DNA of 26,758 nt from Clostridiales bacterium (GCA_015056395.1 SVGK01000010.1:1-26758), one strand, 5' to 3'. Numbered from the stretch's first letter, positions 8,190 through 26,165 are shown. Made by a program: numbers and translations. Notes: generated from the sequence alone by a model not told the origin.

Positions 8190-8199
8190 GCCGGGAGGT

Positions 8200-8850: not shown

Positions 8851-8853
8851 TTC

Positions 8854-9911: not shown

Positions 9912-10119
9912 TGTCATCGAAGTGGATGGCGTTGTCACGGAGTCGTATCCGAACGCCATGTTTGAAGTACAGCTGCCCAACGGGCACAAGGTATTGGCAC
10001 ACGTCTCCGGCAAGATGCGCATGAACTACATACGCATATACCCCGGCGACAAGGTGAAGATAGAGCTCTCGCCCTACGATCTGACCCGCGGCCGGATCAC
10101 CTGGCGTTCCAAGAGCTGA
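9898..10119 (+). CDS. infA: Translation initiation factor IF-1
   Basis: [41 protein letters not shown]...RITWR is a canonical S1-like IF-1. It has a TTG start codon overlapping the end of the preceding gene. Confidence 0.94.
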
Positions 10120-10162
10120 GCGACGACGCAGGTCGATGAGTAAGTAAGGAGGCTTGTTACCG

Positions 10163-10276
10163 ATGAAAGTGAGACCTTCTGTGAAGCCCATGTGCGAGAA
10201 GTGCAAGATCATCAAGCGCAAGGGCCGCGTGATGGTGATCTGCGAGAACCCCAAGCACAAGCAGAAGCAGGGCTAA
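10163..10276 (+). CDS. rpmJ: 50S ribosomal protein L36 (zinc ribbon, 37 aa)
   Basis: Not in the ORF track (<60 aa). Translating 10163..10276 by eye gives [47 protein letters not shown] lies at 10146-10152. Confidence 0.93.
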
Positions 10277-10296
10277 GGGGACCGCGATAATACGGC

Positions 10297-10331
10297 AGCG
10301 CCGGACGAATGTCCGGCGCTCAAGTGTTTTT
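10297..10331 (+). terminator. Rho-independent terminator ending the ribosomal cluster
   Basis: Perfect 10-bp stem AGCGCCGGAC-gaat-GTCCGGCGCT at 10297-10320, followed by caagTGTTTTT. It sits between rpmJ and the convergent minus-strand gene. Confidence 0.8.
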
Positions 10332-10339
10332 GGGCCGGC

Positions 10340-11578
10340 TCAGCTTCGTACCGCCTTCTTCAGCTTCTTTGCGATGCGCGCAGGCAGCAGGTCGGCGTGC
10401 GCGATCATCGCGTCGAGCAGCATATCAGGCAGCGCGCGTATCTCGTCCAGGGACATTTCGTCCAGCGCCTCCGCCATCTCCGCAAAGGTATCCTCCGGTT
10501 CCGCGTTGTCAAGGTGCTCTCTCATGTCGTCCGCGGCCTCGTCCAACCGATCCAGATCGTCCGTGACGGTCAGGCGGATGTTCGCCCTGCGGCAGAACTC
10601 TTCGAACAGGCACTTCGCCTCGTTCGAACGGACCCTGATCTCCTTGGGGTATCTGTCCTCCAGGCTTTCGATGAAGTGGTCCAGCATCGCGTCGGCGTCG
10701 TATGAGGGGACATTGCTCAGATGGGACACGTTCACAAGTCCATCCTCGTCCACGGACATCAGCATCGCGGGGAGGAACGGCGGGTCGCCTTCTATGGGGT
10801 GCGGCAGGCGCAGTATGTCGCACTCGTACACGCCCCGTTGCCTGTGCTTCATGAGCTTGGCTATGGCGATGTCGTTGATGCGGGTCGGCGTCGCGGGGAC
10901 AGGTTCGGCGTAAGGCGGCAGGGGTATGCGCTCCTGCTTCAATTTCCCGTCGACGATCGAATACAGCGGTATCGTCACACGGTCGCCGGAGAGACTGTCG
11001 AAGAGCCCCATCTGTTCCGCACCGTAGCACTGGTCGTGCCGGCCGACCACCACAGGCCGCAGCCCGAGCGACGACTTGCCGTGCGCCTTGATCTCCTCGC
11101 TCAGCCTGATCGCCACCCTGAGCGCCGTTTCGAGGAAGGTCCAGTCGTCGTCCTCCACGATATACCAGGGCAGGCAGTGCGGCCTGAAGCGCTGGAAATC
11201 CGGATATGGCGCGCGGAAGGGGATCCCCGCCGCGCTGCAGTATTCTCTGAGCATGTCGAGCTCGTCCGGCGCGAACCGGTCCCTCTGTTCGATGGAGCAC
11301 TGTATGCAATCCTGGCTCAGCATGTCGTCCATGCTGCCGTACACAAAGTCAGGCCCCGGATCGACGACCTTGCGGTATGTCGTGAAGCCCTCCGCGCCGA
11401 CGTACACGGACAGCGCCATGTGCTCGCCAAGGCTGCCCATGACGCAGCAGTAGCCGATCTCGCCCTGCCCATCGTTTGAAGGTATCCTGACGGCGAACAG
11501 CTCTTCTTCCGAGAGCTGCTTCCAGACCTTCGACTTGCGAAAGGCGTAGCCAAGGTCCAGGTAACGGTGATCGATCAT
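10340..11578 (-). CDS. Hypothetical cytoplasmic protein (412 aa), last gene of a three-gene minus-strand operon
   Basis: Long ORF with coding-like composition. Its start lies 25 nt downstream of the SGNH hydrolase stop. No family recognised by eye. Acidic C-terminal region. Confidence 0.7.
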   Translation of the reverse strand: MIDHRYLDLGYAFRKSKVWKQLSEEELFAVRIPSNDGQGEIGYCCVMGSLGEHMALSVYVGAEGFTTYRKVVDPGPDFVYGSMDDMLSQDCIQCSIEQRDRFAPDELDMLREYCSAAGIPFRAPYPDFQRFRPHCLPWYIVEDDDWTFLETALRVAIRLSEEIKAHGKSSLGLRPVVVGRHDQCYGAEQMGLFDSLSGDRVTIPLYSIVDGKLKQERIPLPPYAEPVPATPTRINDIAIAKLMKHRQRGVYECDILRLPHPIEGDPPFLPAMLMSVDEDGLVNVSHLSNVPSYDADAMLDHFIESLEDRYPKEIRVRSNEAKCLFEEFCRRANIRLTVTDDLDRLDEAADDMREHLDNAEPEDTFAEMAEALDEMSLDEIRALPDMLLDAMIAHADLLPARIAKKLKKAVRS

Positions 11579-11602
11579 ATGTGACGCTCCTTGATGGTCT
11601 TA

Positions 11603-12259
11603 TCACGCGAGCATCTCGCGTATCTTTTCCGCCACGACGGGCGCGAGCTTCGCGTGGTCCGCCCTGGAATAGTGCAGCCCGTCGAAATCGTTGATCTCGA
11701 AGCCGAGCTCCGCACAGTCGATGAAGCCGCAGCCGTGCCTTTCGGCGATGTCGCAGTACAGCGCGCCAAGCTGCAGGCTCTTTTGATAGGCCTCGTCGCC
11801 GAAGCGCGATGCGCTCCTGAGCTTGCCGATGTCCGGATGCGTCGGCGCGGGCGCGATCAGCAGCACCTTGGGCGCGGGATAACCGTAATAGCGCTGTTCA
11901 CACTCCCGCACCAGCATGTCCATGCCCTTGGCGATCATGCCCGCGGAGAGGTTGAAGTGGCGCTTGAGCTCGTTGCAGCCCAGCTGCAGCACGGTCAGAT
12001 CCAGCGGCGCGTGCGCGTCCAGCGCGACCCTGAGGCCAGTGATGCCCCTGCGCAGCGGGAAGTAGGGGTCTTCGACCATGATCGTGCGTCCGTTCAGCGC
12101 GTCCGTGACGACGTCGAACCCGTCGCCCAGCAGCGCGCGCACACGCCCGGGCCAGTGCTCGTCCTCACGCATGCGCCTGCAGGTGTCGAGCTCGGGGATG
12201 TACTGCGTGTGGTCATAGCCCCAGGTGTTGGAATCGCCGAATATCAGTATGCGTTTCAT
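11603..12259 (-). CDS. SGNH/GDSL-family hydrolase (esterase/lipase-like)
   Basis: N-terminal GDSNTWG (block I serine). A GxND-like block. C-terminal DGLHYS (catalytic Asp-x-x-His). ATGA start/stop overlap with the upstream gene. Confidence 0.85.
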   Translation of the reverse strand: MKRILIFGDSNTWGYDHTQYIPELDTCRRMREDEHWPGRVRALLGDGFDVVTDALNGRTIMVEDPYFPLRRGITGLRVALDAHAPLDLTVLQLGCNELKRHFNLSAGMIAKGMDMLVRECEQRYYGYPAPKVLLIAPAPTHPDIGKLRSASRFGDEAYQKSLQLGALYCDIAERHGCGFIDCAELGFEINDFDGLHYSRADHAKLAPVVAEKIREMLA

Positions 12260-12756
12260 GTGCGGATCCCCTTCGCTTCGTCCAGCGCCTTGCGTATCAG
12301 CACGATCTTGCGCTCGTCCTGTTTGTGCTTGACGTTCTTTCGATAGCCGTCCTTTGAGGAAGCCTCATAAACCCTGAGATAATCGGGAAGCGTCAAAAGC
12401 CCATAACGCGCGCCCTTCTCCTCGACGATCGGTATTCTGGATATGTCCACGCCGGCGAAGGGCCCGAGGCTCTCCAGCGAAGCGAAGGCCACGCTGACGC
12501 CGTCCCTTTCGAAGGCGTGCTCCGAGTCGTCATACAGCGCATAGCCCAGCGCCGCCATGGCCCGGCTGAGCATGGGCCAGGCCTCGCGCAGCAGGCGTTC
12601 GGGGACCAGCACGTCCACGTCGTCCGCGTCGAGACTGCGGTCCAGGCGTTCCTCGAGCCCCAGCGAACCAAACAACAGCGGTTCGACGCCGAAGCCCTCG
12701 TTCAACATGCGCGCGACCTGCAAAAATGCCGCGCGTTTCGCGCCGTCAGCTCTCAT
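12256..12756 (-). CDS. Nucleotidyltransferase-fold protein (Pol-beta-like NTase superfamily, 166 aa)
   Basis: Motif LLFGSLGLEERLDRSLDADDVDVLV fits hG[GS]-x(9-13)-DxD. The ATG at 12756 is preceded by AGGAGG 5 nt upstream. The longer ORF-track start at 12876 has no RBS and would read through the upstream hairpin. Confidence 0.7.
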   Translation of the reverse strand: MRADGAKRAAFLQVARMLNEGFGVEPLLFGSLGLEERLDRSLDADDVDVLVPERLLREAWPMLSRAMAALGYALYDDSEHAFERDGVSVAFASLESLGPFAGVDISRIPIVEEKGARYGLLTLPDYLRVYEASSKDGYRKNVKHKQDERKIVLIRKALDEAKGIRT

Positions 12757-12792
12757 GCGTCCTCCTGCGTGCGAACATCCCATCGTCCTCCA

Positions 12793-13345
12793 CAGCGGCG
12801 GCCTCCGGGCCGCCACGCTGTCCATCCGTTCCAGTCTGCGGTCAGTTCGAGGCGAGGAACAGCTTCCAGTCCTCATCTGATATGGAAAACTTGTCGACGA
12901 TCTCCTCGTCCGACCAGCCGGTGGTCAGGCGCAGCTTGCGTATCGTGTCGAAGAGGCTGTTCAAGCGCCCCTCGGCGCGTCCTTCTTCGCGTCCCTCTCT
13001 ACGTCCTTCTTCGCGCCCTTCCTGATAGATATCTTCAATGATGCTGCACATTGCACGTACCCCGTGGCCCCTCCGCAGCGGCGGCCTCCAGGCCGCCACA
13101 CCATCGTCCGTTCCCGCCTGCAATCAGTCCGAGGCGAGGAACAGCTTCCAGTCCTCGCTCGATATGGAGAGCTTGTCGACGATCTCCTCGTCTGACCAGC
13201 CTGTGGTCAGGCGCAGCTTGCGGATCGTGTCGAAGAGGCTGTTCAGGCGCCCCTCGGTGCGTCCTTCTTTGCGTCCCTCTTCGCGTCCTTCTTCGCGTCC
13301 TTCTTCGCGCCCCTCCTGATAGATATCTTCCATGATCTTGCACAT
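12793..13345. repeat. Two tandem ~270-284-bp direct repeats (~88% identity) spanning the 3' end of the Rpn-type gene plus its downstream GGCGGCC-n4-GGCCGCC hairpin
   Basis: Copy 1 is ~12793-13060 and copy 2 is ~13077-13345. Both begin CAGCGGCGGCCTCCRGGCCGCCAC and contain ...CGAGGCGAGGAACAGCTTCCAGTCCTC... Confidence 0.85.
12842..13051 (-). pseudogene. Duplicated C-terminal fragment (~69 aa) of the adjacent Rpn/YhgA-type nuclease gene
   Basis: MCSIIEDIYQEGREEGRREGREEGRAEGRLNSLFDTIRKLRLTTGWSDEEIVDKFSISDEDWKLFLASN is ~85% identical to the last ~70 aa of the 13124..13996 product. It arises from a 284-bp tandem DNA duplication. Confidence 0.75.
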
Positions 13346-13996
13346 TTCAAGCGCCCCCTTTGGGTCGTCCTTATAATACCCGCTTCGTTCCGCCATCTCC
13401 TCGTACAGCATATCCCCGGGATCGCTGCACAGGAAATCGTGCATCAGCTTTCCCAGCGCGTCGTCGCCCCTGTACTGGCCGTTGACATACAGTATGTGTT
13501 CGCGGTCGTCGAAGGGCGCGCCGGTGCCCAGGTTGATGCGCTCGACCGGATAAAGCCCCTTCCCCATGCGGAACACGTCGTGCTCCGTGATGAATATGAC
13601 ATAGGTCTCCGGCAGCGCCCTGAAGGGCTGTCCCGCGCTCAGAGCTTCGATGTCCATCGCGGCTGAGTGGTACCGGGCGCGCTCCGGCTCGGCGCCCTCG
13701 TCCGCGCGCTGCACCTCGATGTCATACTGCCTGTGCTTGCTGTCCGTGGCGTGCACGTCCAGCGTCACGGACCGTGCGCCGGCCAGCCGCTTCATGTCGC
13801 GCTGCGTCTCCGCGCCGGTGAGCACCAGGTCGTCCTTGTCCAGTATGATCCTCAGCACGAACTGCGCAAACGGCAGATCGTCGCGGAACATGCAGCGCAT
13901 GAACACGTCGTCAATGGGACGCAGCTGCGCAAGCCGCGCAAGGCTCCGCTCCGTGAACTGCCTGCGCCAGGCCTCGTCGATGTTCATGGCGCACAC
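13124..13996 (-). CDS. Rpn/YhgA-like PD-(D/E)XK family recombination-promoting nuclease / putative transposase
   Basis: The D...IEVQ core (LDVHATDSKHRQYDIEVQRA) is typical of the transposase_31/PDDEXK families. The C-terminal EGREEGREEGREEGRKEGRTEGR repeats and the LNSLFDTIRKL...WSDEEI tail are hallmarks of this family. Confidence 0.75.
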   Translation of the reverse strand: MCAMNIDEAWRRQFTERSLARLAQLRPIDDVFMRCMFRDDLPFAQFVLRIILDKDDLVLTGAETQRDMKRLAGARSVTLDVHATDSKHRQYDIEVQRADEGAEPERARYHSAAMDIEALSAGQPFRALPETYVIFITEHDVFRMGKGLYPVERINLGTGAPFDDREHILYVNGQYRGDDALGKLMHDFLCSDPGDMLYEEMAERSGYYKDDPKGALEMCKIMEDIYQEGREEGREEGREEGRKEGRTEGRLNSLFDTIRKLRLTTGWSDEEIVDKLSISSEDWKLFLASD

Positions 13997-14162
13997 CTCC
14001 TCTGCTCCGAATCTATTATATCATGGATACGAACGGCGCGCAAGGTGTTCGCAGCGCGTTGCGTTTCGGTTAATTGCATTCGGATGGTATAGACCCCTTG
14101 AAATCAGCGTCCACATAGATTATACTAATGTAAATAGGTATGCCCTGAAGGAGAGTGAGCCC

Positions 14163-15923
14163 ATGAGCAAGTTCTTTATCGAATGCCCGGCCTGTCACCG
14201 CTACAGCCAGGCCTCCACGTCCCTGTTTGCCAGCCGGCGCATACGCTGCGCCTGCGGCTTCACCATCGACGTCAAGGCGGACCGCATCACCACGCGCGTC
14301 TGTCCGTCCTGCGGCAATTCCATCGCTTTCGACCAGGCGAAGGGCGCGACGGCGAAGTGCCCCATATGCAGGGCGCAGCTGCTCACGCCGGAGAGCATGA
14401 ACAGCCTGGTCACGTTCGCGTGCCGCACCTGCGGCTGCACGCTGCAGGCGAACAAGGGCGCGCAGCAGATCACGTGCCCCCTGTGCGACACGGTCAACGA
14501 CGTGCAGGCCGAGGTCAAGCTCGCGGCGCAGCGCGCGCAAGGCACGCCGCAGGTCATACGCTACGAGGGCGACAACATGACGTTCGTCTGGCGGCACCCC
14601 GCGACGGACTTCGTGATGGGCTCGCAGCTGATCGTGCACGAGAGCCAGGAGGCTCTGTTCTTCCGCAACGGCGAGGCGCTGGATTCGTTCCCAGCGGGAC
14701 GCTACACGCTCGAGACCGCGACGCTGCCGCGCATGAATGGCCTGCTGCCGCTGCCTGTGCAGGGACAGCCCTTCCACGCGGAGGTCTTCTTTGTCAACCT
14801 GACCACGCAGATGGGCATCAAATGGGGCACCAACAGCAAGGTCGGACTGTTCGACCCGGCCAGCGGCCTGCATGTGGAGCTGGGCGCGTCCGGCAGCTTC
14901 AACCTGCGCGTGACGGACCCGCGGCGGCTCGTGATCCGCCTGGTCGGCACCACGGACAGGCTGACGCAGGAGCAGGTGTTCGGGCACGACGGCGGCTACT
15001 TCCGCACGCTGGTCATGACGAAGGTCAAGGCGAACCTCGCGCGCGTGATCAGGGAGAACCGCATATCCGTGCTGGAGCTGGACCAGCACATCGACGTGAT
15101 CGGCGAGGCGCTGCGCACGCAGATCAACGCGGAGTTAGAGGAATACGGCATGACCATGCCTGAGTTCTACGTCGCCAACATACTGACGCCGGACGACGAC
15201 CCGAACTTCAGGCGCATGAAGCAGCAGCACGCGGAGCTCTACCTGCGCACGCGCGAGGAGGAGATCCGTAAGGCCGAGGCGGAGGCGGCGTTCGAGCGCA
15301 AGGCGGTCGAGGCGCAGACGCAGGCGCGCATGAAGGTGATCGGCGCGCAGGGCGAAGCCGACGCCATGCGCATACAGGCGCAGGCCCAGGCGGACGCCTA
15401 CCGCATGCAGGCGGAGGCGGAGGCGCAGGAGATGCGCATGAAGGGCTACACCTACCAGCAGGAGACGACGCGCCAGGTCGCCACGGAGGCGGTCAAAAAC
15501 GGCGGCGCGGGCGGCTTGGCCGGCGACGTGACGGGCGTGCTGGGTGGCGCGATGCAGCTGGGCCTCGGCCTGGGCGCGGCCGGCAGCGTGATCGGCATGA
15601 CGAAGGACGCGCTGGGCGCGATGAACGCGGCCGTGCCGCAGGCGCCCGCCGCGACGGACGACGGCTGGACGTGCGAGGGCTGCGGCTGCACGGGCAACAC
15701 GACGAACTTCTGCCCGAACTGCGGGCGGCGGCGGCCCGAGGCAGGCTGGACGTGCCCGGGCTGCGGGCAGGCGGGCATCACGACGAACTTCTGTCCGAAC
15801 TGCGGGAGGCGACGGCCCGAGGCGGGCTGGACGTGTCCCGGCTGCGGGCTCACGGGCATCACGACGAACTTCTGTCCGAACTGCGGCGCCAAGAAGGGTG
15901 AGAAGGGAGATGTCGAGGGATGA
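14163..15923 (+). CDS. SPFH/Band-7 (YdjI-like, Band_7_1) domain protein fused to multiple zinc ribbons
   Basis: RBS GAAGGAGAG at 14148-14156, then ATG at 14163; the ORF-track start at 13650 is an unsupported extension. The N-terminus has three CxxC...CxxC pairs. The central segment (IRYEGDNMTFVWRHPATDFVMGSQLIVHESQEALFFRNGEALDSFPAGRYTLETATLP...FHAEVFFVNLTTQMGIKWGT) resembles B. subtilis YdjI-type SPFH. An A/E/Q-rich coiled coil, a Gly-rich linker, and three GWTCPGCG..TTNFCPNCG zinc-ribbon repeats follow. Confidence 0.8.
   Translation: MSKFFIECPACHRYSQASTSLFASRRIRCACGFTIDVKADRITTRVCPSCGNSIAFDQAKGATAKCPICRAQLLTPESMNSLVTFACRTCGCTLQANKGAQQITCPLCDTVNDVQAEVKLAAQRAQGTPQVIRYEGDNMTFVWRHPATDFVMGSQLIVHESQEALFFRNGEALDSFPAGRYTLETATLPRMNGLLPLPVQGQPFHAEVFFVNLTTQMGIKWGTNSKVGLFDPASGLHVELGASGSFNLRVTDPRRLVIRLVGTTDRLTQEQVFGHDGGYFRTLVMTKVKANLARVIRENRISVLELDQHIDVIGEALRTQINAELEEYGMTMPEFYVANILTPDDDPNFRRMKQQHAELYLRTREEEIRKAEAEAAFERKAVEAQTQARMKVIGAQGEADAMRIQAQAQADAYRMQAEAEAQEMRMKGYTYQQETTRQVATEAVKNGGAGGLAGDVTGVLGGAMQLGLGLGAAGSVIGMTKDALGAMNAAVPQAPAATDDGWTCEGCGCTGNTTNFCPNCGRRRPEAGWTCPGCGQAGITTNFCPNCGRRRPEAGWTCPGCGLTGITTNFCPNCGAKKGEKGDVEG
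15657..15899 (+). repeat. Three near-perfect 81-bp (27-aa) tandem repeats inside the SPFH gene, each encoding one C4 zinc ribbon
   Basis: GGCTGGACGTG recurs at 15663, 15744 and 15825 with an exact 81-nt period. The encoded units are GWTC[EP]GCGxxGxTTNFCPNCGRRRPEA. Confidence 0.9.
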
Positions 15924-16579: not shown

Positions 16580-16613
16580 TAATTCAGAATTCAGAATTAA
16601 GAATTAAGAATGG
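16580..16613. repeat. AT-rich heptamer microsatellite (AATTCAG x2, AATTAAG x2) directly after the stop codon
   Basis: taATTCAGAATTCAGAATTAAGAATTAAGAATgg contains two EcoRI sites. It is an AT island in an otherwise >65% GC context. Confidence 0.7.
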
Positions 16614-16664
16614 ATAGCCCGGAGACCCGAACGTGCGGGTCCCCCGCAATGCCCCGAACGACCT

Positions 16665-17655
16665 CGTAGCGGTGGCGTCTACGCCGCCATATCCCTCGCC
16701 ATTCCCGCCAGGGAATGCGAAACGACCGAAGGACCTCATCCGGCCCTCACGGGCCACCTTCCCCAAAGGGCAACGCTGTCAACTTTGAACAAGGACATAA
16801 CAAATCATAGATATACGTCGTCCAGCGGGAATGGCGGCTGATAGCCGCCGCTACGGATCACATGATCTGCAAATGTAACCGCATAAACGGCACGGGATCG
16901 TCTTAAGTTGACAGCGTTGCCCCAAAGGGGAAGGCAAGGTCCGCCATTCAATATACGATCCGCCGTCGTACCTCGCCCATCGGTCCCGAGGACGATGATC
17001 AACAGACAAAGAGACGATCGGCCCACGAATGTACCCATATCACAGCTCGGCACGCCCGATCCTCGCCCGGAGCGGCGTCCTGTCGACGCCGTCTCCGCGA
17101 CAAAACCTCGAGCCGTCCGCTCCTATCCGACCTTGATCCCCGAGCTGACGTGGCCCGTTGGACCGCGTACAGCACAGCCACCGCGCCGAAGGCGCGGCGC
17201 GAAGCGTCCTTGAGGGTCCTCATGCTGTCTGCTAAACTGAAGCACACGGCGGCGTGATAAGGTTTCGTTTCCAACCTCTCACCCGTCGCCGTGGCCTCAT
17301 ACAAGCAGACAGCAGGAGGTTCATCAAGGATGGCGGCCGGACGAGGTATCCGTCCCCCCCAACGACCCCGTAGCGGCGGCTATCAGCCGCCACATCCCTC
17401 GCCATTCCCAACAGACAAGCCGAAACGACCGAAGGACCTCATCCGGCCCTCACGGGCCACCTTCCCCAAAGGGCAACGCTGTCAACTTAAGGCGATCCCG
17501 TTTTGGTTGTGCAGCTACATCTGCAGATCGTGTGATCCGTAGCGGCGGCTATCAGCCGCCATTTCCGACGCACAACGTATACCCGTGATTTGTTATGGTC
17601 TTGTTAAAAGTTGACAGCGTTGCCCCAGAGGGGAAGGCAAGGTCCGTCATTTGAA
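16665..17655. mobile_element. Non-coding MITE-like composite repeat: ~115-bp inverted arms (16827-16943 and 17455-17566) around a ~500-bp core, with extra partial copies on both sides
   Basis: The left arm and the reverse complement of the right arm align at ~85% (GGAATGGCGGCTGATAGCCGCCGCTACGGATCACAYGATCTGCA...CTTAAGTTGACAGCGTTGCCC...). Direct repeats 16665-16786 and 17369-17488 share an identical 66-bp block at 16721-16786 and 17424-17488. There is a further fragment at 17609-17652. The only ORFs here are spurious GC-frame ORFs. Confidence 0.6.
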
Positions 17656-17791
17656 TACAAGATCGACCGCACCCCCCAGAATCACGGCCAGCGTTCGATC
17701 TCCGGCCAATAATTCCGAAACACCCGGAGGGTGTCTAGCGAAGCGTCGATTCCGAATTACCCCATCCCCCCACGACCAAAGGAGCAACACC

Positions 17792-20700
17792 ATGATCATC
17801 TTCAAATGCAAATCCTGCGGCGGCGACCTGTCCTTCGAGCCGGGCGCGAGCGTCGCGGAATGCCCCTACTGCGGCGTGAAGCAGACGCTGCCGAAGCTGG
17901 ACGACGACAAGCGCGCGAACCTCTACGACCGCGCCAACCACTTCCGCCGCCAGAACGAGTACGACAAGGCCATGGCGATCTACGAGCAGATACTGTCCGA
18001 GGACCGCACGGACGCCGAGGCGTACTGGTCGCTGGTGCTGTGCCGCTACGGCATAGAGTACGTCGAGGACCCCGTTACGCGCAAGCGCGTGCCCACGGTC
18101 AACCGCGCGCAGTACGCCTCCGTGCTGGCGGACGACGACTACAAGTCGGCGCTTCAATACGCGGACCCTGCGCAGCGCGTGCTCTATGAATCGGAGGCGG
18201 AGGCCATCGCGGAGATACAGCGCGGCATATTGGACATCTCGCGCAAGGAGCAGCCCTTCGACGTGTTCATCTGCTACAAGGAGACGGACGCGAACGGCCG
18301 CCGCACGCCGGACAGCGTGCTGGCGACGGACCTGTACCACCAGCTGACGAAGGAGGGCTTCCGGGTATTCTTCTCGCGCATCACGCTGGAGGACAAGATC
18401 GGCACGGCGTACGAGCCGTACATATTCGCGGCGCTGAACAGCGCGAAGGTGATGGTGGTGCTGGGCACGAAGCCGGAGTACTTCAACGCGGTGTGGGTGA
18501 AGAACGAGTGGAGCCGCTACCTTGCGCTGATACGCGCGGGCGCGGAGAAGGTGCTGGTGCCCGCGTACCGCGACATGGACCCCTATGACCTGCCGGAGGA
18601 GTTCGCGCACCTGCAGGCGCAGGACATGGGCAAGCTGGGCTTCATGCAGGACCTGATACGCGGCATCAAGAAGCTGACCGCGAAGGACGATCCGAAGCCC
18701 GCGCGGCCCGCAGCGCAGACCGTGGTCGCGGGCCCCGGCGCGAACATAGAGAACCTGATGAAGCGCGCGCGGCTCTTCATGGAGGACGGCAACTGGATGA
18801 GCGCCACGGAGTACCTGGACAAGGTGCTGGACGAGAATGCCGAGTACGCGCCCGCCTACGCGGGCAAGGTGCAGGTCTCGCTGCGCATGAAGCGGGAGGC
18901 CGAACTGGCCGGGAGCCTCACGGACTACGAAGGCGACCCCGACTGGCAGAGGGCGCTGCGCTTTGCCGCGCCCGAACAGCGGAAGGTTTACGAGGGGTAC
19001 GCGGCGCAGGCGGCGGAGGCGCGGGAGGAGAAGCGCAAGGAAGACATCTATGCCGGAGCGGCCGCCATGCTCGCAAAGGCCGATACGCCCGCCGCGTGCC
19101 GCGCGGCGAAGGCGGAATTTGCGAAGATCCCGCTGCACAGGGACGCGGGCGCGAAGGTGCGCGAGTGCGAGGAGAAGGCGAGGCGCATCGAATACGACGC
19201 GCTCCTCACCAGATACAAGGACGTGGCCAGGGACTATAACAGCGTCTCAAAGGCCGAGAGGCTTGAGGCGCTTGCGGCGGAGTTCGATGCGTTCAGGGGC
19301 ACCGACATGCCCGGGCGCTGCCGCGCGGAGGCGGAGCAGTGCCGCGCGGCGCTCTATGACGAGGCCGCCGAGGCCATGCGGAAGAGCGCGCAGGCACAGC
19401 AATTCGAAAAGGCGGCGGAGCTGTTCAGACGGCTGGGCGCCTACAGGGACGCGCAGGCGCAGGCGCGAAAGTGCTCGGACAGCGCGGCGGAAGTCAAACG
19501 CGCCGACGAGCTGCGCGCCGCGCGTGAACGCGAGGAGCAGGAGCGCAGGATAGAGAAGGAGCGCGCCAGACAGAAGAGGAACAGGGTGCTCCTGTCGTTG
19601 CTGGTGCTCGTGCTGGCGGCGGGCGCGCTGGCCTATCTGTACGTGCTGAAGCCCATGATGGCCTATGACAAGGCGGTTGGGGCGATGGAGGCGGGAAACT
19701 ACGACGAGGCGACGGCGCTGTTTGAAGAGATGGGAGACTACAGGGACGCCGCTGTACAGGCGCAGGAGAGCCAATACAGGAAGGGTCTGTCGTTGATGAA
19801 CAGCGGAAAATACGATGCGGCTGTAGAGGTGTTCAACAGTATCGGCAGTTACGGCGATAGTTCCGCAAAGGCAAAACAGGCACAGGCAGACAAATTGTTT
19901 GATGCGGGATATTACGCCGAAGCGTATGCGGCATACATCGCATTGGATTCGGAGTATCAAACACATAAAGACGATTACGAGCAGATGTACGTCGATGCAT
20001 CGAGGCTGTTTGCGGATGGTGATTATGATGGCGCCAGCATGGCGTTTAATTCGATCGCGGGATACAAGGATTCAACAACACAGGCAAAGGAGAGCCAATA
20101 CCAGAAGGGCCTGTCGTTGATGAACAGTGGGCAATATGATGCAGCTGTAGAGGTATTCAACAGTATCAGCAGTTACGGCGATAGTTCTACGAGAGCAAAA
20201 CAGGCACAGGCAGATGAATTGTTTGCTGCGGGGAATTACGCCGAAGCATATATGGTTTACGCCGCATTGGATACGGGATATCAAACACACAAAGACGATT
20301 ACGAGCAAATGTACGTCGATGCATCGAAGCAATTTGCGGATGGTGATTATGACGGCGCCAGCAAGGCGTTTAATTCAATTGCAGGATACAAGGATTCAGT
20401 AACACAGGCAAAGGAGAGCCAGTACCAGAAGGGCCTGTCGTTGATGAACAGCGGGCAATATCATGCAGCTGCGGTGGCATTCAAGAGCCTTGGCAGTTAC
20501 AACGACGCCGCGACACAAGCGCAGGAGAGCCAGTACCAGAATGGCCTGTCGTTGATGAAAATTGGGCAATACGATGCGGCTGTGGAGGTATTCAAGAGCC
20601 TTGGCAGTTACAACGACGCTGCGACACAGGCGCAGGAGAGCCAATATCGGAAAGGCATGTCGTTGATGGAGAGCGAGGAGTATGATGCGGCTACGGAGGT

Positions 20701-21484
20701 GTTCGATGGCCTCAGTAATTACAACGACGCCGCGACAAAAGCGCAGGAGAGCCAGTACCTGAAGGCGGCGGCGCTGAACACAGCGGAGAATTACGATGAA
20801 GCTTATCTGGTCTATGCGTCCATAGCCGGCTATAAGGATGTTGACAGCATCGTCAAAAACGACGGTAATATTTCAGCAGCAGCCTGGCGCGCGCAGTTAT
20901 ACGTCGGCAATACGGTGACCTTCGGCGCGTACGACCAGGACGGCGATACCTCAAACGGCGCGGAGGCCATCGAATGGATCGTGCTGGCGAACGACGGCAA
21001 GACGGCGACGCTGATTAGCAGATACGGTCTGGACGCGAAGCCCTACAACACTGAACAAGAATATGTGACCTGGGAGACATGCACGCTGCGGAAATGGCTG
21101 AACGGCGATTTCCTGAACGCGGCCTTTTCGGCGGACGAGAGGGCGAAGCTTGAAACGGTCAAGGTCACGGCGGACAGGAATCCCAAGAATTTTATCGATC
21201 CCGGCAACGACACGCAGGACAAGGTCTTCCTGCTGTCCATAGACGAGGCGAACAAGTATTTCAGCTCTGATTCGGACCGCATGTGCAAGCCCACGAAGAC
21301 GGCAGTCAAGAATGGAGCAAGCACGAACAGCTCGGGTGCGTGCTGGTGGTGGCTGCGGTCGCCCGGCTACTATCCTAGCCTCGTCGCATACGTCCGCGAC
21401 GACGGTTCGGTCTACTACGACGGCTGCGGTGTCTACAACGGCGATCTCGCTGTTCGGCCGGTCGTGGTGCTGCGGCTTTCATAG
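17792..21484 (+). CDS. Large single-pass membrane protein (1230 aa): N-terminal zinc ribbon, TPR-like region, TIR domain, helical repeat region, TM helix, ~12 degenerate 37-38-aa extracytoplasmic repeats, DUF6273-like C-terminal domain
   Basis: RBS AAAGGAG at 17778-17784 and ATG at 17792 (MIIFKCKSCGGDLSFEPGASVAECPYCG); the ORF-track start at 17651 is an unsupported extension. The TIR region at ~18254-18680 reads QPFDVFICYKETD...EGFRVFFS...VMVVLGTKPEYFNAVWVKNEWSRYLAL, with the conserved W-x3-E at 18494-18508. The TM helix RVLLSLLVLVLAAGALAYLYVL lies at ~19585-19650. Repeats fit the pattern G.Y.DA..QA.ESQY.KG. The C-terminus (TVTFGAYDQDGD...IEWIVLANDGKTATLISRYGLD...VTWETCTLRKWLN...KVFLLSIDEA...ACWWWLRSPG...AVRPVVVL) matches my recollection of DUF6273. 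Confidence 0.8.
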   Translation: MIIFKCKSCGGDLSFEPGASVAECPYCGVKQTLPKLDDDKRANLYDRANHFRRQNEYDKAMAIYEQILSEDRTDAEAYWSLVLCRYGIEYVEDPVTRKRVPTVNRAQYASVLADDDYKSALQYADPAQRVLYESEAEAIAEIQRGILDISRKEQPFDVFICYKETDANGRRTPDSVLATDLYHQLTKEGFRVFFSRITLEDKIGTAYEPYIFAALNSAKVMVVLGTKPEYFNAVWVKNEWSRYLALIRAGAEKVLVPAYRDMDPYDLPEEFAHLQAQDMGKLGFMQDLIRGIKKLTAKDDPKPARPAAQTVVAGPGANIENLMKRARLFMEDGNWMSATEYLDKVLDENAEYAPAYAGKVQVSLRMKREAELAGSLTDYEGDPDWQRALRFAAPEQRKVYEGYAAQAAEAREEKRKEDIYAGAAAMLAKADTPAACRAAKAEFAKIPLHRDAGAKVRECEEKARRIEYDALLTRYKDVARDYNSVSKAERLEALAAEFDAFRGTDMPGRCRAEAEQCRAALYDEAAEAMRKSAQAQQFEKAAELFRRLGAYRDAQAQARKCSDSAAEVKRADELRAAREREEQERRIEKERARQKRNRVLLSLLVLVLAAGALAYLYVLKPMMAYDKAVGAMEAGNYDEATALFEEMGDYRDAAVQAQESQYRKGLSLMNSGKYDAAVEVFNSIGSYGDSSAKAKQAQADKLFDAGYYAEAYAAYIALDSEYQTHKDDYEQMYVDASRLFADGDYDGASMAFNSIAGYKDSTTQAKESQYQKGLSLMNSGQYDAAVEVFNSISSYGDSSTRAKQAQADELFAAGNYAEAYMVYAALDTGYQTHKDDYEQMYVDASKQFADGDYDGASKAFNSIAGYKDSVTQAKESQYQKGLSLMNSGQYHAAAVAFKSLGSYNDAATQAQESQYQNGLSLMKIGQYDAAVEVFKSLGSYNDAATQAQESQYRKGMSLMESEEYDAATEVFDGLSNYNDAATKAQESQYLKAAALNTAENYDEAYLVYASIAGYKDVDSIVKNDGNISAAAWRAQLYVGNTVTFGAYDQDGDTSNGAEAIEWIVLANDGKTATLISRYGLDAKPYNTEQEYVTWETCTLRKWLNGDFLNAAFSADERAKLETVKVTADRNPKNFIDPGNDTQDKVFLLSIDEANKYFSSDSDRMCKPTKTAVKNGASTNSSGACWWWLRSPGYYPSLVAYVRDDGSVYYDGCGVYNGDLAVRPVVVLRLS
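19766..20413 (+). repeat. Two tandem 324-bp (108-aa) intragenic direct repeats (~88% identity) within the extracytoplasmic repeat region of the TIR protein gene
   Basis: GAGAGCCAATAC recurs at 19766, 20090 and 20414 with an exact 324-nt spacing. This stretch (~19690-20830) has visibly lower GC (~50%) than the 5' half of the gene (~70%). Confidence 0.85.
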
Positions 21485-21607
21485 TCAAATCGTTAATCTT
21501 TACTCTTCAAATCCTCTGGCGTGCAAGCGCCATGATCCCGGCAGTGCCGCGAACAGACCTTATCCTGCAGGAGCGAGAATCATTGAGTACAAAGAGGTGA
21601 ACAGAAT

Positions 21608-22492
21608 ATGAACGGAAGACCAGGCATCCTCTTTCTCGGCAACGGCATCAACCGACTGTTCAATGACGATCCGTGGGACAAGATGATCCGCGACCAGCTC
21701 GCCCTGTCGGGCCATCGCTACACGTGGGAACAGATCAGGAACATACCGCCCACGATGCAGATCGTACTTGCGACGAACGATCAGGTCGACGCCCGCCTCA
21801 AGCAGATCGCAAAGGAGCTGGAACAACAGCGCATACAGGACGAACGCGCCGCTTTCCTGCGCAGGCTCGCCGGTATGGATGTCGACTGCGTAATGACGGC
21901 GAATTATTCTCTCGAGATCGAAAAGGCATTCGGGCTGAAGGAAAGCTGCGCCTCCTACAGGCGGCGCCTGAACAGGACCATCGAAGCAAACGGCCTGCGC
22001 GACGATTTTCGTCTGTACCAATATTATCCCCTCGAGCGGGCGGACGGAAGGACGATGCCGCTTTGGCACGTGCACGGCGACATCGCGAAGCCTCGCTCCA
22101 TGATCATGGGCCATTACTACTACGCAAGGCATCTGCGCGAGATACAGGACCGCGTCGGCGTTATGATGCGCGTCGTTCGGGGCTGTGAACGGGCCGGCTC
22201 GACGTTCCATCCGCAAAGCTGGGTCGATGCGTTTCTGATAAGCGACGTGTTCATGCTCGGCTTTGGGCTGTATCTGTGTGAGTCCGATTTGTGGTGGCTG
22301 CTCTGCTGCAAGAAGCGCAACTTCCCCGATACGAAGGTGTTCTTCTACGGCGAGGCGACGAATGATGTCCGGCTGCTGCTGGAGGCCTATGGCGGCGAAA
22401 CGCAGGACGAGATCAGCCGGATCGGAGAAGACGGCTATATGCGCTTTTATGAAAGGGCGATCGCGGATATCGAACGAAAGCTGGAACATTAG
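21608..22492 (+). CDS. Stand-alone SIR2-like (SIR2_2 / DSR-ThsA-type sirtuin fold) protein, 294 aa, no additional sensor domain
   Basis: The N-terminal ILFLGNGINRLFNDDPWDKMI fits the SIR2_2 consensus lFlGAGxS...PxW..L. VMTANYSLEIEKA fits TTNYDxLlE (catalytic Asn retained). LWHVHGDIAKPRSMIMGHYYY fits iyKlHGs...lvlt.edY (catalytic His retained). DVFMLGFGLYLCESDLWWLL fits llfiGYSl.D. RBS AAAGAGGTG lies upstream. The gene is 124 bp downstream of, and co-directional with, the TIR gene. Confidence 0.65.
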   Translation: MNGRPGILFLGNGINRLFNDDPWDKMIRDQLALSGHRYTWEQIRNIPPTMQIVLATNDQVDARLKQIAKELEQQRIQDERAAFLRRLAGMDVDCVMTANYSLEIEKAFGLKESCASYRRRLNRTIEANGLRDDFRLYQYYPLERADGRTMPLWHVHGDIAKPRSMIMGHYYYARHLREIQDRVGVMMRVVRGCERAGSTFHPQSWVDAFLISDVFMLGFGLYLCESDLWWLLCCKKRNFPDTKVFFYGEATNDVRLLLEAYGGETQDEISRIGEDGYMRFYERAIADIERKLEH

Positions 22493-22574
22493 TTGGATGT
22501 CCAGAGGGACAAGGACCGCGATCCTGCATGATCGGTGTCATTGATGTATGTCCTGCCCATGCCCTCAATAACGT

Positions 22575-23545
22575 ACCACCGTAGGGACGCCCCATGGGGC
22601 GTCCGCGTGCCCGATCCCGGCACGCACCGCGCAACGTCTTTACGAACCGCATCCCGTAGGGACGCCATTCATGGCGTCCGCCGCGCGTGAGCGCACCGTT
22701 ATCCGTTTCCCCGCAGGGCGCGTTTTCCCCGCGATCCGCCATTGCGGACACACGCAGGGGGAACGTGGCGGCGTAGACGCCGCCGCTACGGATGTTGTTA
22801 TATCACTTGAAGGATGGCGGACAAGGCGCGGCAAGCAACGCTCCTGCGGCGACACATCGCCGCCATTCCGTACACCGACCGTCCTGTCGCCCACGCCGCA
22901 CAGAGCATGACCCTCCGTAGGGACGCCCCATGGGGCGTCCGCGTGCCCGATCCCGGCACGCACTGCGCAACGTCTATACGAACCACATCCCGTAGGGGCG
23001 CCATCCATGGCGCCCGCGCCCTCATCCCGGCATGAACCGCGCAACATCCACACGAAACCGCATCCCGTAGGGACGCCATTCATGGCGTCCGCCTGCGCGT
23101 GAGCGCACCGTTATCCGTTGCCCTACAGGACGCATATCCCCCGCGATCTGCCATCATGAACACGGGGCACGTGGCGGCGCAGACGCCGCCGCTACGGGTG
23201 TTGTTATATATCACCTAACGATGGGGGCGGATGGGGCGCGGCAAGCGACGACCCTGCGGCGACACATCGCCGCCATTCCGTACACCGACCGCCCTGTCGC
23301 CCGCGCCGCACAGAGCATGACCCTCCGTAGGGACGCCCCATGGGGCGTCCGCGTGCCCGATCCCGGCACGCACTGCGCAACGTCTATACGAACCACATCC
23401 CGTAGGGGCGCCATCCATGGCGCCCGCCCGCGCGTAAGCGCACCGTTATCCGTGGCCTCCCAAGGCGCATATCCCCCGCGATCCGTCATCACGAGCGCGG
23501 GGGAACGTGGCGGCGCAGACGCCGCCGCTACGGGTGGTGTTCTTG
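22575..23545. repeat. Three tandem non-coding units (~330, ~420, ~230 bp), each with a perfect 20-bp palindrome GGACGCCCCATGGGGCGTCC, a second palindrome GGRCGCCATYCATGGCGYCC ~75 bp later, and a GTGGCGGCG-yAGA-CGCCGCCGCTACGG hairpin
   Basis: Palindrome A occurs at 22585, 22919 and 23339. Palindrome B or variants occur at 22660, 22995, 23080 and 23413. The CGCCGCCGCTACGG hairpin occurs at 22773-22800, 23171-23198 and 23507-23535. Sequence between the palindromes is itself repeated, so these are not CRISPR spacers. Confidence 0.8.
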
Positions 23546-23603
23546 GACCACCTTTCGCATTTGCGAGCAACGAGTGGTGGATGAGGGCGCAGCATTTTAC
23601 ATG

Positions 23604-23983: not shown

Positions 23984-24096
23984 GGGGATGCACTTCCTTT
24001 CTGGTCGATGCGGTTATGAGGTGCATATCAGCTTTCGAACGGTGATGTATAATAGAAATGCAAATCGGACAAGTGGTGTTGGCTGATTTTGCATGT

Positions 24097-24140
24097 GGGC
24101 CTGTTCCCTTCGCGAGAGGGAACGGGCCTTCTTATTTCTT
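24097..24140 (+). terminator. Second copy of the GGGCCTGTTCCCTTCGCGAGAGGGAACGGGCC stem-loop plus TTCTTATTTCTT, abutting the stop of the minus-strand secreted-protein gene
   Basis: Identical 32-bp hairpin and similar flank (ATTTTRCATGWG upstream) to the copy at 23604. Confidence 0.5.
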
Positions 24141-24689
24141 GGTCGGGGCAACAACAAGCAAATAACTTTCGATGTATTCGGGGTTCCAGATGTAATAGGT
24201 GGCATAGCGGCCAATGTGATAGGGGATACGCGCGCCGGGCGTCAAGATGGATCCTGCATTTCTGAAAACATTCATAGTCTTCTCATAGAACCCTTTTGAA
24301 TCGGACATTATGGACAAAACCTGATCATGCGATATATTCGGGAAACTTGTGTACTCAAGCGCAGAATACAGGGCCATGAGCTTGAAGGCGTCTTCAACAG
24401 ACAAGTCGTCAGTGGATATGTTGACGTTCAACGGAAAATCTACAGACAATGTAGCGAAAGATGAAGCATCGTACTGAATCGTAATCATGTCATAGCCCAT
24501 CGCGGAAGTGGCATCGTTCACATCGGCAAAAACTGGGTCAGCTTTGAACGGATAGCCATACAGCGAACACCATCCAGCATATGTGGCTGCAATCCTTGAA
24601 GGCGTATCAAAGCCGGACGAAGCATCTGCGAGAGCGAAACCGGACAATATGAGTGCGAGCAAGAGCAGTATAACAACAAGTCTTTTCAT
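24132..24689 (-). CDS. Secreted hypothetical protein with N-terminal signal peptide (185 aa), lower-GC gene
   Basis: ATG at 24689 preceded by GGAGGTG with a 7-nt spacer. MKRLVVILLLLALILSGFALADAS is a signal peptide. The ORF-track start at 24734 lacks an RBS. GC is ~45-50% versus >65% for flanking DNA. Confidence 0.7.
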   Translation of the reverse strand: MKRLVVILLLLALILSGFALADASSGFDTPSRIAATYAGWCSLYGYPFKADPVFADVNDATSAMGYDMITIQYDASSFATLSVDFPLNVNISTDDLSVEDAFKLMALYSALEYTSFPNISHDQVLSIMSDSKGFYEKTMNVFRNAGSILTPGARIPYHIGRYATYYIWNPEYIESYLLVVAPTKK

Positions 24690-24747
24690 GTGAAACACCT
24701 CCATTAGGTCCATATTCCGTGACGGCACGTTCATGGATTCAGGATAA

Positions 24748-25131
24748 CTATGCCGTTATGGACGCGCCATCTTCCTTTTGCATGTCCGGGTTGCCTGCGA
24801 AGGCGCGGGCTGTGTTCAGGAGGGTGGTTTGGGCGTCGTGGTTCAGGGAACGGAACAGGGAAAGAAGCTCAGATTCCTGTTCTGTAAGCGGAACGGATAA
24901 TTCATATTTTGGGGGTTCAGAGTAGAATTCAGCGATGCTGTTGATTCCATAGATCTCACACAGGCGAAAGAGCATATCAGCGTCCGGCTGGCCCCGGCCA
25001 TGCTCCCAGCCCGATACGGTCTTATCGCTTTTACCGATCATTTCGCCAACTTCTCTTGCTGTCAAGCCTGCCATTATTCGGAAATCATGCAGCTTGGCGG
25101 CGAGGGCTTTTCTGATTTCTTGTTCTTTCAC
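24748..25131 (-). CDS. XRE-family (Cro/CI-type) helix-turn-helix transcriptional regulator, 127 aa
   Basis: GTG start at 25131 preceded by GAGGTGA. The HTH reads LTAREVGEMIGKSDKTVSGWEHGRGQPDADMLFRLCEIY, and there is a C-terminal extension. Confidence 0.85.
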   Translation of the reverse strand: MKEQEIRKALAAKLHDFRIMAGLTAREVGEMIGKSDKTVSGWEHGRGQPDADMLFRLCEIYGINSIAEFYSEPPKYELSVPLTEQESELLSLFRSLNHDAQTTLLNTARAFAGNPDMQKEDGASITA

Positions 25132-26039: not shown

Positions 26040-26165
26040 GCACGACATAGGCCGTTCCCGCAGGGGCACCATCCATGGCGCCCGCCACACGTGAGCGCAT
26101 GTTACCCATCTTCCCGTAGGGACGCCCCATGGGCGCCCGCGTTCCCCATGCCCGACACACCGAAA
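26040..26165. repeat. Partial, degenerate copy of the palindromic repeat family seen at 22575-23545
   Basis: GGGCACCATCCATGGCGCCC (near-palindrome) ... CACGTGAGCGCA ... CCCGTAGGGACGCCCCATGGGCGCCCGCG match the palindrome B and A types of the downstream array. Confidence 0.6.

Follow-up and report, generated by a model that had tools for sequence, protein, structure and literature searches.

Facultative linkage of a single-domain SIR2-like protein to SPFH-associated membrane TIR receptors in gut Clostridia

To our knowledge, the TIR and SIR2 defense systems described so far sense infection inside the cell. Conflict systems in which TIR and SIR2 proteins act through nicotinamide adenine dinucleotide (NAD+) are well established, as are stand-alone SIR2 effectors such as KomC and C-type-lectin (C-lec) sensors that are diversified by diversity-generating retroelements (DGRs) and have TIR effectors (PMC10907252). 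Here we analyze a 26,758-nt stretch of a contig from an uncultured Clostridiales bacterium (GCA_015056395.1, SVGK01000010.1:1-26758; the whole stretch is referred to as the window, and positions count from its first base), in which a gene for a membrane-spanning TIR protein is followed by a gene for a SIR2-like protein. A preliminary description of this sequence had presented the pair as a Thoeris-like two-gene module. We find that the TIR-SIR2 link is real but facultative: the conserved unit consists of an SPFH protein (c2), a protein with four transmembrane segments (c3), and one or more TIR receptors, with SIR2-type proteins of at least two families as optional inserts. We tentatively read the two genes as the downstream end of a four-gene, same-strand cluster for c2, c3, the TIR receptor, and the SIR2-like enzyme (Table 1), which might operate as an NAD+-based, outside-in defense mechanism. 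Loci of this kind form a large family in gut and rumen Clostridia, and integrases and resolvases are frequent neighbors.

Seen from the TIR side, in 79 loci of a metagenome scan in which components were detected by profile hidden Markov models (HMMs), c3 was present in 63, c2 in 56, a DUF6273-like domain in 53, and the SIR2-like family in 5. The c2 and c3 counts are lower bounds because many of the contigs are short. The commonest order was c2, c3, and TIR-DUF6273, and context look-ups for four close TIR homologues on long contigs all returned a Band_7_1 gene and a gene for a ~230-aa protein beside one to three TIR genes (an AbiH-type gene appeared in only one of the four). SIR2-like genes, when present, are always on the same strand and sit between c3 and the TIR gene, between a TIR gene and the next c2, or after the TIR gene; in two loci of our collection, which are designated by L numbers, the SIR2-like match abuts c3 and lies 125 nt (L087) or 9 nt (L100) before the TIR gene. 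A second, unrelated SIR2 family of 370 to 435 aa occupies the same array slots, co-oriented, in five loci (Table 1), and L017 holds both families. Members of this second family match the PADLOC SIR2 model (E = 1.3e-6) and Aga_SIR2, and only the TTNY motif is common to both families. The adjacency on which the two-gene module had been based thus recurs, but the pair is not self-contained, and c2 and c3 had no place in the module as first described.

Starting from the SIR2-like family, we scanned one genome per species and found 147 relatives; 80 loci were kept, nearly all labeled Clostridia and of gut or rumen origin. The SIR2-like gene was inside a same-strand array of one to five Zn-ribbon/TPR/TIR paralogues in 15 of the 80 loci (11 of 36 when only loci flanked by 5 kb or more on each side are counted), and the c2-c3 pair, with proteins of ~600 and ~230 aa, respectively, stood upstream in 11 loci. 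Array-linked members fall on all major branches of a neighbor-joining tree. Among the relatives checked, the three closest (61%, 48%, and 46% identity) are preceded, at a distance of 80 to 135 nt, by a gene ending in DUF6273. Two of the three have TIR_2 on this upstream gene and a Band_7_1 gene on the downstream side; in the closest (61%), the DUF6273 gene is cut by the contig end and no SPFH gene lies within the contig. By a rough estimate, which is not a proper background rate, a ~10-kb array in a ~2.5-Mb genome would fall within 8 kb of a given gene ~1% of the time, and because the observed frequency is 19 to 31%, we take the linkage to be real. Both the 15 loci and the nearest relatives bear out the expectation of the preliminary description that the two genes co-occur outside this genome.

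The two co-directional open reading frames (ORFs) first reported are confirmed, with 123 nt between them. The TIR gene begins with an ATG preceded by AGGAG and encodes, in order, a Zn-ribbon (C6, C9, C24, C27), a TPR region, the TIR domain, a helical linker, one transmembrane helix, TPR-like 37-aa repeats, and DUF6273. TPR-type Pfam matches fall at residues 44 to 79 and 625 to 1010, and the repeats have periodicities of 37 aa and 108 aa that are mirrored in DNA repeats D1 and D3, spaced 111 and 324 nt. The protein lacks a signal peptide, and an N-in/C-out orientation is predicted because eight lysines or arginines occur in the 15 residues before the helix and two in the 15 residues after it. 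The prediction accordingly puts the Zn-ribbon/TPR/TIR half in the cytoplasm and the repeat/DUF6273 half outside the cell, in agreement with the single-pass protein of 1230 aa with a repeat/DUF6273 ectodomain that had been proposed from the sequence.

The TIR assignment, originally placed at about residues 155 to 295 with a W-x3-E glutamate, holds: the TIR_2 match exceeds its cut-off, and W235-x3-E239 is invariant in all 33 ungapped modules from other genomes. Also invariant in the TIR module are the four Zn-ribbon cysteines, Y162-K163, R171-T172, E208, and W240, and E164 is nearly so. The best PDB sequence match of the region is the TIR domain of a Toll-like receptor (TLR), with the W...E motif aligned, and a structural model of medium confidence (predicted local distance difference test score [pLDDT], 75.8) retrieves the TIR domains of L6, Roq1, SNC1, TLR1, AbTir, MAL, and SPARTA in Foldseek. 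The glutamate at the position of E239 is catalytic in plant and bacterial TIR enzymes, and E239 would permit NADase activity, of which it is no proof. The first 323 residues match 3695 protein clusters, the best 120 of which are 73 to 89% identical; the family is plentiful in gut and rumen Clostridia. Among paralogues in 15 genome loci, the N-terminal 300 aa are 46 to 83% identical to the window protein, while the C-terminal parts are 22 to 54% identical and vary in domain content. The paralogue arrays are hence conserved on the predicted inside and variable on the predicted outside.

The SIR2-like ORF is identical to GenBank hypothetical protein E7317_01525 and is preceded by a ribosome-binding site, AAAGAGGTG, 8 nt upstream of its start. 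The window protein itself misses the gathering threshold of SIR2_2 (PF13289) marginally (23.4 versus 24.5 bits, residues 94 to 177), and PADLOC returned noise-level matches only; the direct SIR2_2 assignment of the preliminary description therefore fails by a small amount, but the SIR2 fold it implied is secured by the matches of relatives to SIR2_2 (29 of 43 aligned family members at E <= 0.001), by a confident model with its fold matches, and by profile matches to solved structures. The AlphaFold model (pLDDT, 93.4; predicted template-modeling score, 0.91) retrieves KomC/HAM-SIR2, BcThsA, DSR2, and SIR2/HerA from the PDB in Foldseek (E = 1e-6 to 1e-4; template-modeling scores, 0.43 to 0.62), and a profile search of PDB sequences returned FAM118B, KomC, and ThsA with the Gly loop, TTN, and H-x-H-G motifs aligned. 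From these model-based comparisons, the product is a single-domain protein of the SIR2 fold. Among the 43 aligned sequences the Pfam AbiH model touches 23, the PADLOC LmuA model matches 23, and the ThsA1 model 14. Invariant columns are G11-N12-G13, N99-Y100, E105, H154, H156-G157, E225, D227, and W229, which include the Asn (N99, in MTANYS) and His (H156, in VHGD) that had been pointed out as catalytic. N99 and H154/H156 line up with motifs of FAM118B (N and H-x-H-G), and we take them to be the equivalents of ThsA N112/H152.

We detected no SLOG, Macro, or transmembrane segment in the SIR2-like protein by Pfam, in the AlphaFold model, or by hydropathy, so its description as a single domain stands; a minimal stand-alone SIR2 is not new, however, since KomC (264 aa) is already one. 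All 83 relatives found in the family search are ~300 aa. At E <= 1e-30, an exhaustive profile search yielded 690 cluster representatives; the 150 with the best scores measure 184 to 358 aa and include no Rosetta-stone fusion to TIR or sensor domains. Membership in AbiH (PF14253) was considered and rejected: the window protein has no Pfam or PADLOC AbiH match, hhalign gives 1.4% probability against a true AbiH (PADLOC E = 1e-32), and the two align only at the H-x-H-G stretch. Searches of phages and plasmids with the SIR2-like protein returned only distant proteobacterial homologues (21 to 26% identity) outside any TIR context. One of these (26% identity; L170 6986-7936, Salmonella Infantis SARB27) has transfer genes of a PFGI-1-class integrating conjugative element around it and follows immediately on the gene for an 873-aa helicase-like hypothetical protein; this arrangement might represent another kind of SIR2 pairing.

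Upstream of the TIR gene, c2 combines several N-terminal CxxC Zn-ribbons, an SPFH domain of the YdjI/SamI type (Band_7_1, 126.7 bits against a Pfam cut-off of 24), an Ala/Glu-rich region, and three C-terminal Zn-ribbon repeats; it has no transmembrane helix, is cytosolic, and is 53% identical to the copy in L072. The C-terminal Zn-ribbons (GWTCxGCG...NFCPNCG) are encoded by three tandem 81-nt repeats at 15663-15905 that are 72 to 85% identical. The start of c3 overlaps the c2 stop codon by 4 nt, and its product has predicted transmembrane segments at residues 8-26, 35-53, 74-92, and 100-118 followed by a cytosolic helical tail; it scores 238.9 bits against a profile HMM of its relatives. Neither protein has a PADLOC or NCBIfam match from which it could be named, and c3 has no Pfam match either. 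By analogy, c3 may anchor c2 as a receptor-clustering platform; in Bacillus subtilis, the membrane proteins SamG-SamH recruit the cytosolic SPFH protein SamI/YdjI (PMC8581546; bioRxiv 10.64898/2026.02.06.704340).

The 1.2 kb between c3 and the TIR gene carries an inverted repeat with 155-nt arms that are 86% complementary (16768-16922 and 17471-17625), together with direct repeats D8, D18, and D20. Direct repeats of ~100 nt stand 703 nt apart, and GC-rich hairpins have the form GTAGCGGCGGC...GCCGCC. From its sequence, the spacer looks like nested elements resembling miniature inverted-repeat transposable elements or repetitive extragenic palindromes. A degraded gene was rejected as its origin, as it has no similarity to genes at that position in other loci. 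The c3-TIR interval is a variable slot across loci, at most 60 nt long in 28 cases and 300 to 2100 nt in 39, and the longer gaps hold assorted genes. In L126 (8349-9971), L131 (4424-6094), and four other loci it is filled by proteins with an N-terminal Zn-ribbon, RCC1 repeats, and a C-terminal Zn-ribbon, which carry neither TIR nor transmembrane segments and whose N-terminal Zn-ribbon resembles that of the TIR receptors.

DUF6273 has a C-type-lectin-like ligand-binding fold and is a DGR target (PMC10743442; bioRxiv 10.1101/2024.10.15.618418). Scanning all fetched loci for repeat pairs with mismatches at the adenines of one copy, we found seven DGRs, all beside TIR receptors, in which 85 to 100% of the mismatches fall at template adenines (Table 1). 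In six of them (L096, L105, L107, L127, L128, and L136) the variable region (VR) is the last ~130 nt of an ORF of 796 to 869 aa that begins with Zn-ribbon/TPR/TIR and has one transmembrane helix. The full cassette in L127 consists of Band_7_1, c3, a TIR_2/DUF6273 gene with the VR, bAvd, the template repeat (TR), RVT_1, and an integrase. Extracellular ligand sensing is favored because DGRs hypermutate the lectin-like tip in these six close relatives. The outside-in sensing suggested at first, with an outward-facing sensor coupled to an inward-facing TIR domain, thereby gains indirect support, from the lectin-like fold and from the VR within TIR ORFs.

The 3' end of the window TIR gene (21341-21470, in about the last 140 nt of the DUF6273 region) is homologous to the VR/TR of L081, with a 27-nt identical block, and many of the differences fall at template AAY codons. 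An active DGR in the window was ruled out: it holds no TR/VR pair and no reverse transcriptase, and 11 contigs that represent the strain in different samples show 100% identity both across the 1880 nt that precede the SIR2-like gene and across the gene itself. The window copy of the TIR receptor is thus not visibly diversifying.

From domain identities, predicted topology, residue conservation, linkage, the arrays, and DGR targeting in relatives, we infer a tentative scheme that comprises the ligand, the roles of SPFH and c3, the enzymatic activities, the TIR-to-SIR2 coupling, and the defense outcome. The ectodomain of the TIR receptor would bind a ligand, for instance a glycan, a component of a foreign cell surface, or a phage particle, and binding would cluster receptors in a membrane platform organized by the SPFH protein c2 anchored through c3. 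Clustering would join the TIR domains in their active state, leading to cleavage of NAD+ or to an ADP-ribose-derived signal. The SIR2-type protein, where present, would serve as an added or amplifying NAD+-consuming effector, for which the TIR product or direct contact, and not a fused sensor domain, would provide the activation. The outcome would be growth arrest or abortive infection.

Several observations weigh against this scheme. None of the 11 TIR-side loci with long flanks on both sides has a SIR2-like gene, and because only the five loci noted above have one, the TIR receptors evidently work without it; its position also varies within arrays, which insertion into a hotspot would fit as well. 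Some 70 to 80% of the SIR2-like genes lie elsewhere, beside secreted LRR_5 proteins, MoxR/VWA pairs, or ComEA-like genes, so the SIR2-like protein can act in other settings or alone, and it has no recognizable signal-binding domain and no fusion among the best 150 representatives. A conserved glutamate is insufficient for NADase activity, as animal TLR TIR domains align at the same motif; c2 and c3 are recognized by no PADLOC model; and co-transcription of all four genes is doubtful because the repeat-filled spacer parts c3 from the TIR gene. Known cellular DGR targets are mostly surface adhesins, which suggests a nonimmune reading. As the cause of the TIR-SIR2 linkage, we consider functional coupling possible and prefer it tentatively, whereas shared island residence is somewhat unlikely. 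In the latter case the SIR2-like protein would be an autonomous NAD+-depleting or abortive-infection factor in the manner of AbiH, and it and the TIR arrays would often be adjacent, uncoupled, because both are frequent cargo of the same integrase-flanked variable regions. Such co-residence would account for the 65 of 80 SIR2-like loci that have no TIR genes, for the rarity and shifting position of SIR2-like genes in arrays, for the resolvases, integrases, TnpV, WYL, restriction-modification, and other defense-type genes that flank the arrays, for the homologue on a Salmonella integrating conjugative element far from any TIR gene, and for the stand-alone, single-domain form of all SIR2-like relatives. 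It fits less well with an adjacency that is always same-strand and often tightly packed inside the array rather than beside it, that is kept across 46 to 61% identity in the window's own clade, that is spread over the whole SIR2-like tree, and that a second SIR2 family repeats; integrases and WYL genes, moreover, stand at array edges and not between c3 and TIR.

Distinctly unlikely, in our view, is that the receptors are not immune at all and are diversifiable anchored lectins for host glycans, mucus, or other cells, with Zn-ribbon/TPR/TIR and SPFH/four-transmembrane parts serving assembly, clustering, or envelope-stress signaling and the SIR2-like protein, if linked, a regulatory NAD-dependent enzyme. 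The use of the DUF6273 C-lec fold by receptor-binding proteins, the gut and rumen origin of the arrays, the action of the SPFH protein YdjI/SamI in membrane-stress signaling and not in defense, the proximity of SIR2-like genes to secreted LRR_5 surface proteins, and the lack of defense-profile matches for c2 and c3 are all compatible with surface lectins. Yet no part of the receptor is more conserved than its cytoplasmic TIR module, which has the catalytic-type glutamate in every copy; every one of the closest fold matches to the SIR2-like protein is a defense-system NADase effector; and multi-paralogue arrays in a mobile-element setting are typical of conflict systems. Genuine Thoeris, in which the TIR protein as ThsB would make a cyclic ADP-ribose signal activating the SIR2-like protein as ThsA in a sufficient two-gene unit, is extremely improbable. 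The adjacent, co-oriented genes, the contacts of some family members with the ThsA1 profile, and the place of BcThsA among the best structural matches recall it, but the SIR2 domain stands alone without SLOG/STALD or Macro, the window protein has no ThsA match, ThsB-type profiles score at noise level, and the pair is not the conserved unit. We continue to prefer, tentatively, a receptor-driven NAD+-based defense in which SIR2-type effectors are optional.

Table 1. Coordinates of features in the window and of DGR repeats and second-family SIR2 genes in other loci (L numbers)
Feature	Position (nt)	Strand	Basis or remark
Promoter-like site TTGAAA-17-TATACT upstream of the SPFH gene	14098-14126	+	10/12 consensus positions; consensus match alone
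c2, SPFH/Zn-ribbon protein, 586 aa	14163-15923	+	Pfam Band_7_1, DZR
c3, four-transmembrane protein, 219 aa	15920-16579	+	Transmembrane prediction, profile HMM of relatives
Noncoding repeat-filled spacer, 1.2 kb	16580-17791		Repeat analysis
TIR receptor gene, 1230 aa	17792-21484	+	ORF, Pfam, hydropathy
TIR_2 domain (PF13676), aa 158-280	18263-18631	+	Pfam 43.1 bits (cut-off 28); predicted cytoplasmic
W235	18494-18496	+	TIR motif residue
E239, candidate catalytic residue	18506-18508	+	TIR motif residue
Single transmembrane helix, aa 599-617	19586-19642	+	Hydropathy 2.44
TPR-like repeat region	19664-20821	+	Pfam TPR_6, TPR_19, ANAPC3; DNA repeats; predicted extracellular
DUF6273 domain, aa 1073-1227	21008-21472	+	Pfam 98.1 bits (cut-off 23.5); predicted extracellular
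SIR2-like gene, single-domain, 294 aa	21608-22492	+	Family alignment, AlphaFold model
N99 codon of the SIR2-like protein	21902-21904	+	Invariant column
H156 codon of the SIR2-like protein	22073-22075	+	Invariant column
Repeat array, ~3 units of ~336-410 nt with GC-rich hairpins	22480-23550		Repeats D2, D4, D7, D9, D10
DGR VR/TR pair, L081	12433-12559/12911-13037		DGR scan
DGR VR/TR pair, L096	2588-2713/3295-3420		DGR scan
DGR VR/TR pair, L105	12343-12468/13050-13175		DGR scan
DGR VR/TR pair, L107	11670-11794/12373-12479		DGR scan
DGR VR/TR pair, L127	12308-12434/13069-13195		DGR scan
DGR VR/TR pair, L128	11040-11166/11801-11927		DGR scan
DGR VR/TR pair, L136	4453-4579/5214-5340		DGR scan
Second SIR2 family, L017	14307-15353		
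Second SIR2 family, L097	3545-4744		
Second SIR2 family, L103	8877-10001		
Second SIR2 family, L130	15348-16580		
Second SIR2 family, L149	10647-11957		

The window has a G+C content of 62%, and its bases 1-9627 are the end of a ribosomal-protein/SecY/Adk/Map operon, after which the sequence is variable. Directly after the operon, minus-strand genes at 9628-13996 encode DUF7309/DUF6930, a GDSL hydrolase, a 206-aa protein of unknown type, and a PDDEXK_2 nuclease, and there is no ribosomal-protein or translation gene among the remaining window genes; everything from ~9.6 to 26 kb resembles an island of variable sequence that has been inserted. The promoter-like site ahead of c2 is a possible start of the cluster transcript, judged by its consensus match, and no terminator-like site is predicted in the gap between the TIR and SIR2-like genes. 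Hairpins with T-rich tails at 22764-22790 and 23170-23196 lie 3' of the SIR2-like gene in the repeat array, which is the probable end of the transcription unit and provides context rather than a system component. From the SIR2-like stop codon to the SWIM gene the window has 1156 nt, compared with ~746 nt on other contigs of this strain, which shows that the repeat units vary in copy number. The hairpin motifs of this array, also found at 13072-13099 and 26056-26099, are the same as those of the upstream spacer and are inverted relative to 16665-16689. An Rfam scan of the window gave no match. At 24001-25131 the G+C content falls to 49%, and this possibly foreign DNA encodes, on the minus strand, an HTH_3 regulator (24748-25131) and a protein of 200 aa without family (24132-24734) that measures 185 aa in other contigs of the strain.

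Beyond the window, the genes that recur at array edges are resolvases, integrases, TnpV, and WYL regulators, with HsdM, DrmB-like, and REase-ARP genes also nearby, and searches of catalogued plasmids and phages gave no match to the TIR module. In L081, a true AbiH gene precedes the c2 gene of the array by ~1.4 kb, with an integrase fragment between them. L168 (1594-4257) and L169 (1486-4149) encode, just upstream of a TIR-SIR2-SPFH array and beside an HsdM methylase, an 887-aa fusion of HSP70/MreB-like and DrmB-like (DISARM) parts that matches PADLOC DrmB at E = 2e-78. Other branches of the SIR2-like family have recurrent neighbors of their own (L013, L015, L018, L025, and L032; L044 to L046, L049, L051, L058, L061, L075, L076, and L078): one set combines a MoxR-type AAA ATPase, a VWA/DUF2201-like protein, and LRR_5, and one clade has ComEA-like helix-hairpin-helix proteins directly upstream.

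The TIR receptor family carries a variable, lectin-like, and sometimes retroelement-hypermutated domain outside the cell and a strictly conserved TIR domain on the same polypeptide. Should both the TIR and the SIR2-type partners prove active, the family would represent outside-in NAD+-based signaling in bacteria and would provide a system for asking how TIR receptors with the layout of animal TLRs arise, a role for the common SPFH/four-transmembrane pair, and a new class of cellular DGR target. A bolder proposal, which we regard as rather improbable, is that gut Clostridia are home to TLR-shaped immune sensors in which a hypervariable outer lectin, diversified through paralogue arrays and in some cases DGRs, is connected across the membrane to a TIR NADase or signal generator on an SPFH platform with interchangeable SIR2 effectors. 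Were it true, bacterial immunity could be triggered outside the cell, before or at phage attachment, by a somatically diversifiable receptor. The narrower claim to a new type of Thoeris would be of less consequence, and it lacks good support. We came across no description, in PADLOC, in NCBIfam, or in the searchable literature, of the one-polypeptide lectin/transmembrane/TIR receptor, its SPFH/four-transmembrane partners, the paralogue arrays, or the targeting of this receptor by DGRs in gut Clostridia; a literature search of incomplete coverage returned nothing specific on an SPFH-plus-TIR system or on TIR receptors as DGR targets in gut bacteria, and we saw TIR named nowhere in the main text of two large DGR surveys.

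Set beside the described systems, the locus resembles type I Thoeris in its adjacent TIR and SIR2-type genes, in the SIR2 fold and Asn/His motif shared with ThsA, and in a plausibly NAD+-centered logic. It differs in that the SIR2-like protein has neither the SLOG/STALD (type I) nor the Macro (type II) sensor and the TIR domain is part of a 1230-aa membrane receptor, unlike the small cytosolic ThsB. The receptor reaches only E = 0.011 with PADLOC ThsB1 and 28.6 bits, against a cut-off of 220, with the NCBIfam model of type III ThcB4, and the ThsA profile does not match the SIR2-like protein of the window. Canonical Thoeris membership is thus ruled out by the missing sensor domain, the profile results, and the absence of a conserved pair, and the original Thoeris-like reading, taken as membership, has to be given up.

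The closest structural match of the SIR2-like protein is KomC of KomBC/HAM-SIR2 (PDB 8zsf, 8zsi, and 9xvc; E = 1.3e-6; 264 versus 294 aa), likewise a single-domain SIR2 and, according to the PDB entry descriptions, one that relies on a partner for activation. Identity to KomC is 12 to 14%, however, and the window has TIR receptors as neighbors in place of a HAM1-type partner gene. DSR2 and SIR2/HerA belong to the same SIR2 NADase fold class, but in those systems large sensor or helicase parts, which the window lacks, are either joined to the SIR2 domain or supplied by a partner. Lactococcus AbiH (PF14253) is also a stand-alone protein of ~300 aa with an H-x-H-G region in common, whereas the window protein lacks an AbiH match. 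The PspA-YdjGHI (SamGHI) membrane-stress module of B. subtilis similarly combines a Band_7_1 SPFH protein, a Zn-ribbon, and membrane-protein partners; in the window, a single protein unites the Zn-ribbons with SPFH, PspA is missing, and homology of c3 to YdjH is not established.

On the sensor side, DGR-diversified C-lec sensors are part of STAND and MoxR-vWA conflict systems whose effectors can include TIR (PMC10907252; PMC7159879). Those "antigen sensors" share with the relatives of the window protein a hypermutable C-lec domain coupled to effectors, but they are NTPase-centered, belong to multicellular bacteria (cyanobacteria and Chromatiales), and have targets that are mostly predicted to be cytoplasmic, with some periplasmic or surface-exposed (PMC10907252), whereas here sensor, transmembrane helix, and TIR domain form one polypeptide of gut Clostridia with an SPFH partner and no NTPase. 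The order of an extracellular ligand-binding domain, one transmembrane helix, and a cytoplasmic TIR domain is that of animal TLRs, from which the receptor differs in its ectodomain of TPR-like repeats and DUF6273 instead of LRRs, in its N-terminal Zn-ribbon/TPR region, and in the lack of adaptor homologues. We regard the TLR-type layout as an analogy and not as membership, and as probably a case of convergent architecture.

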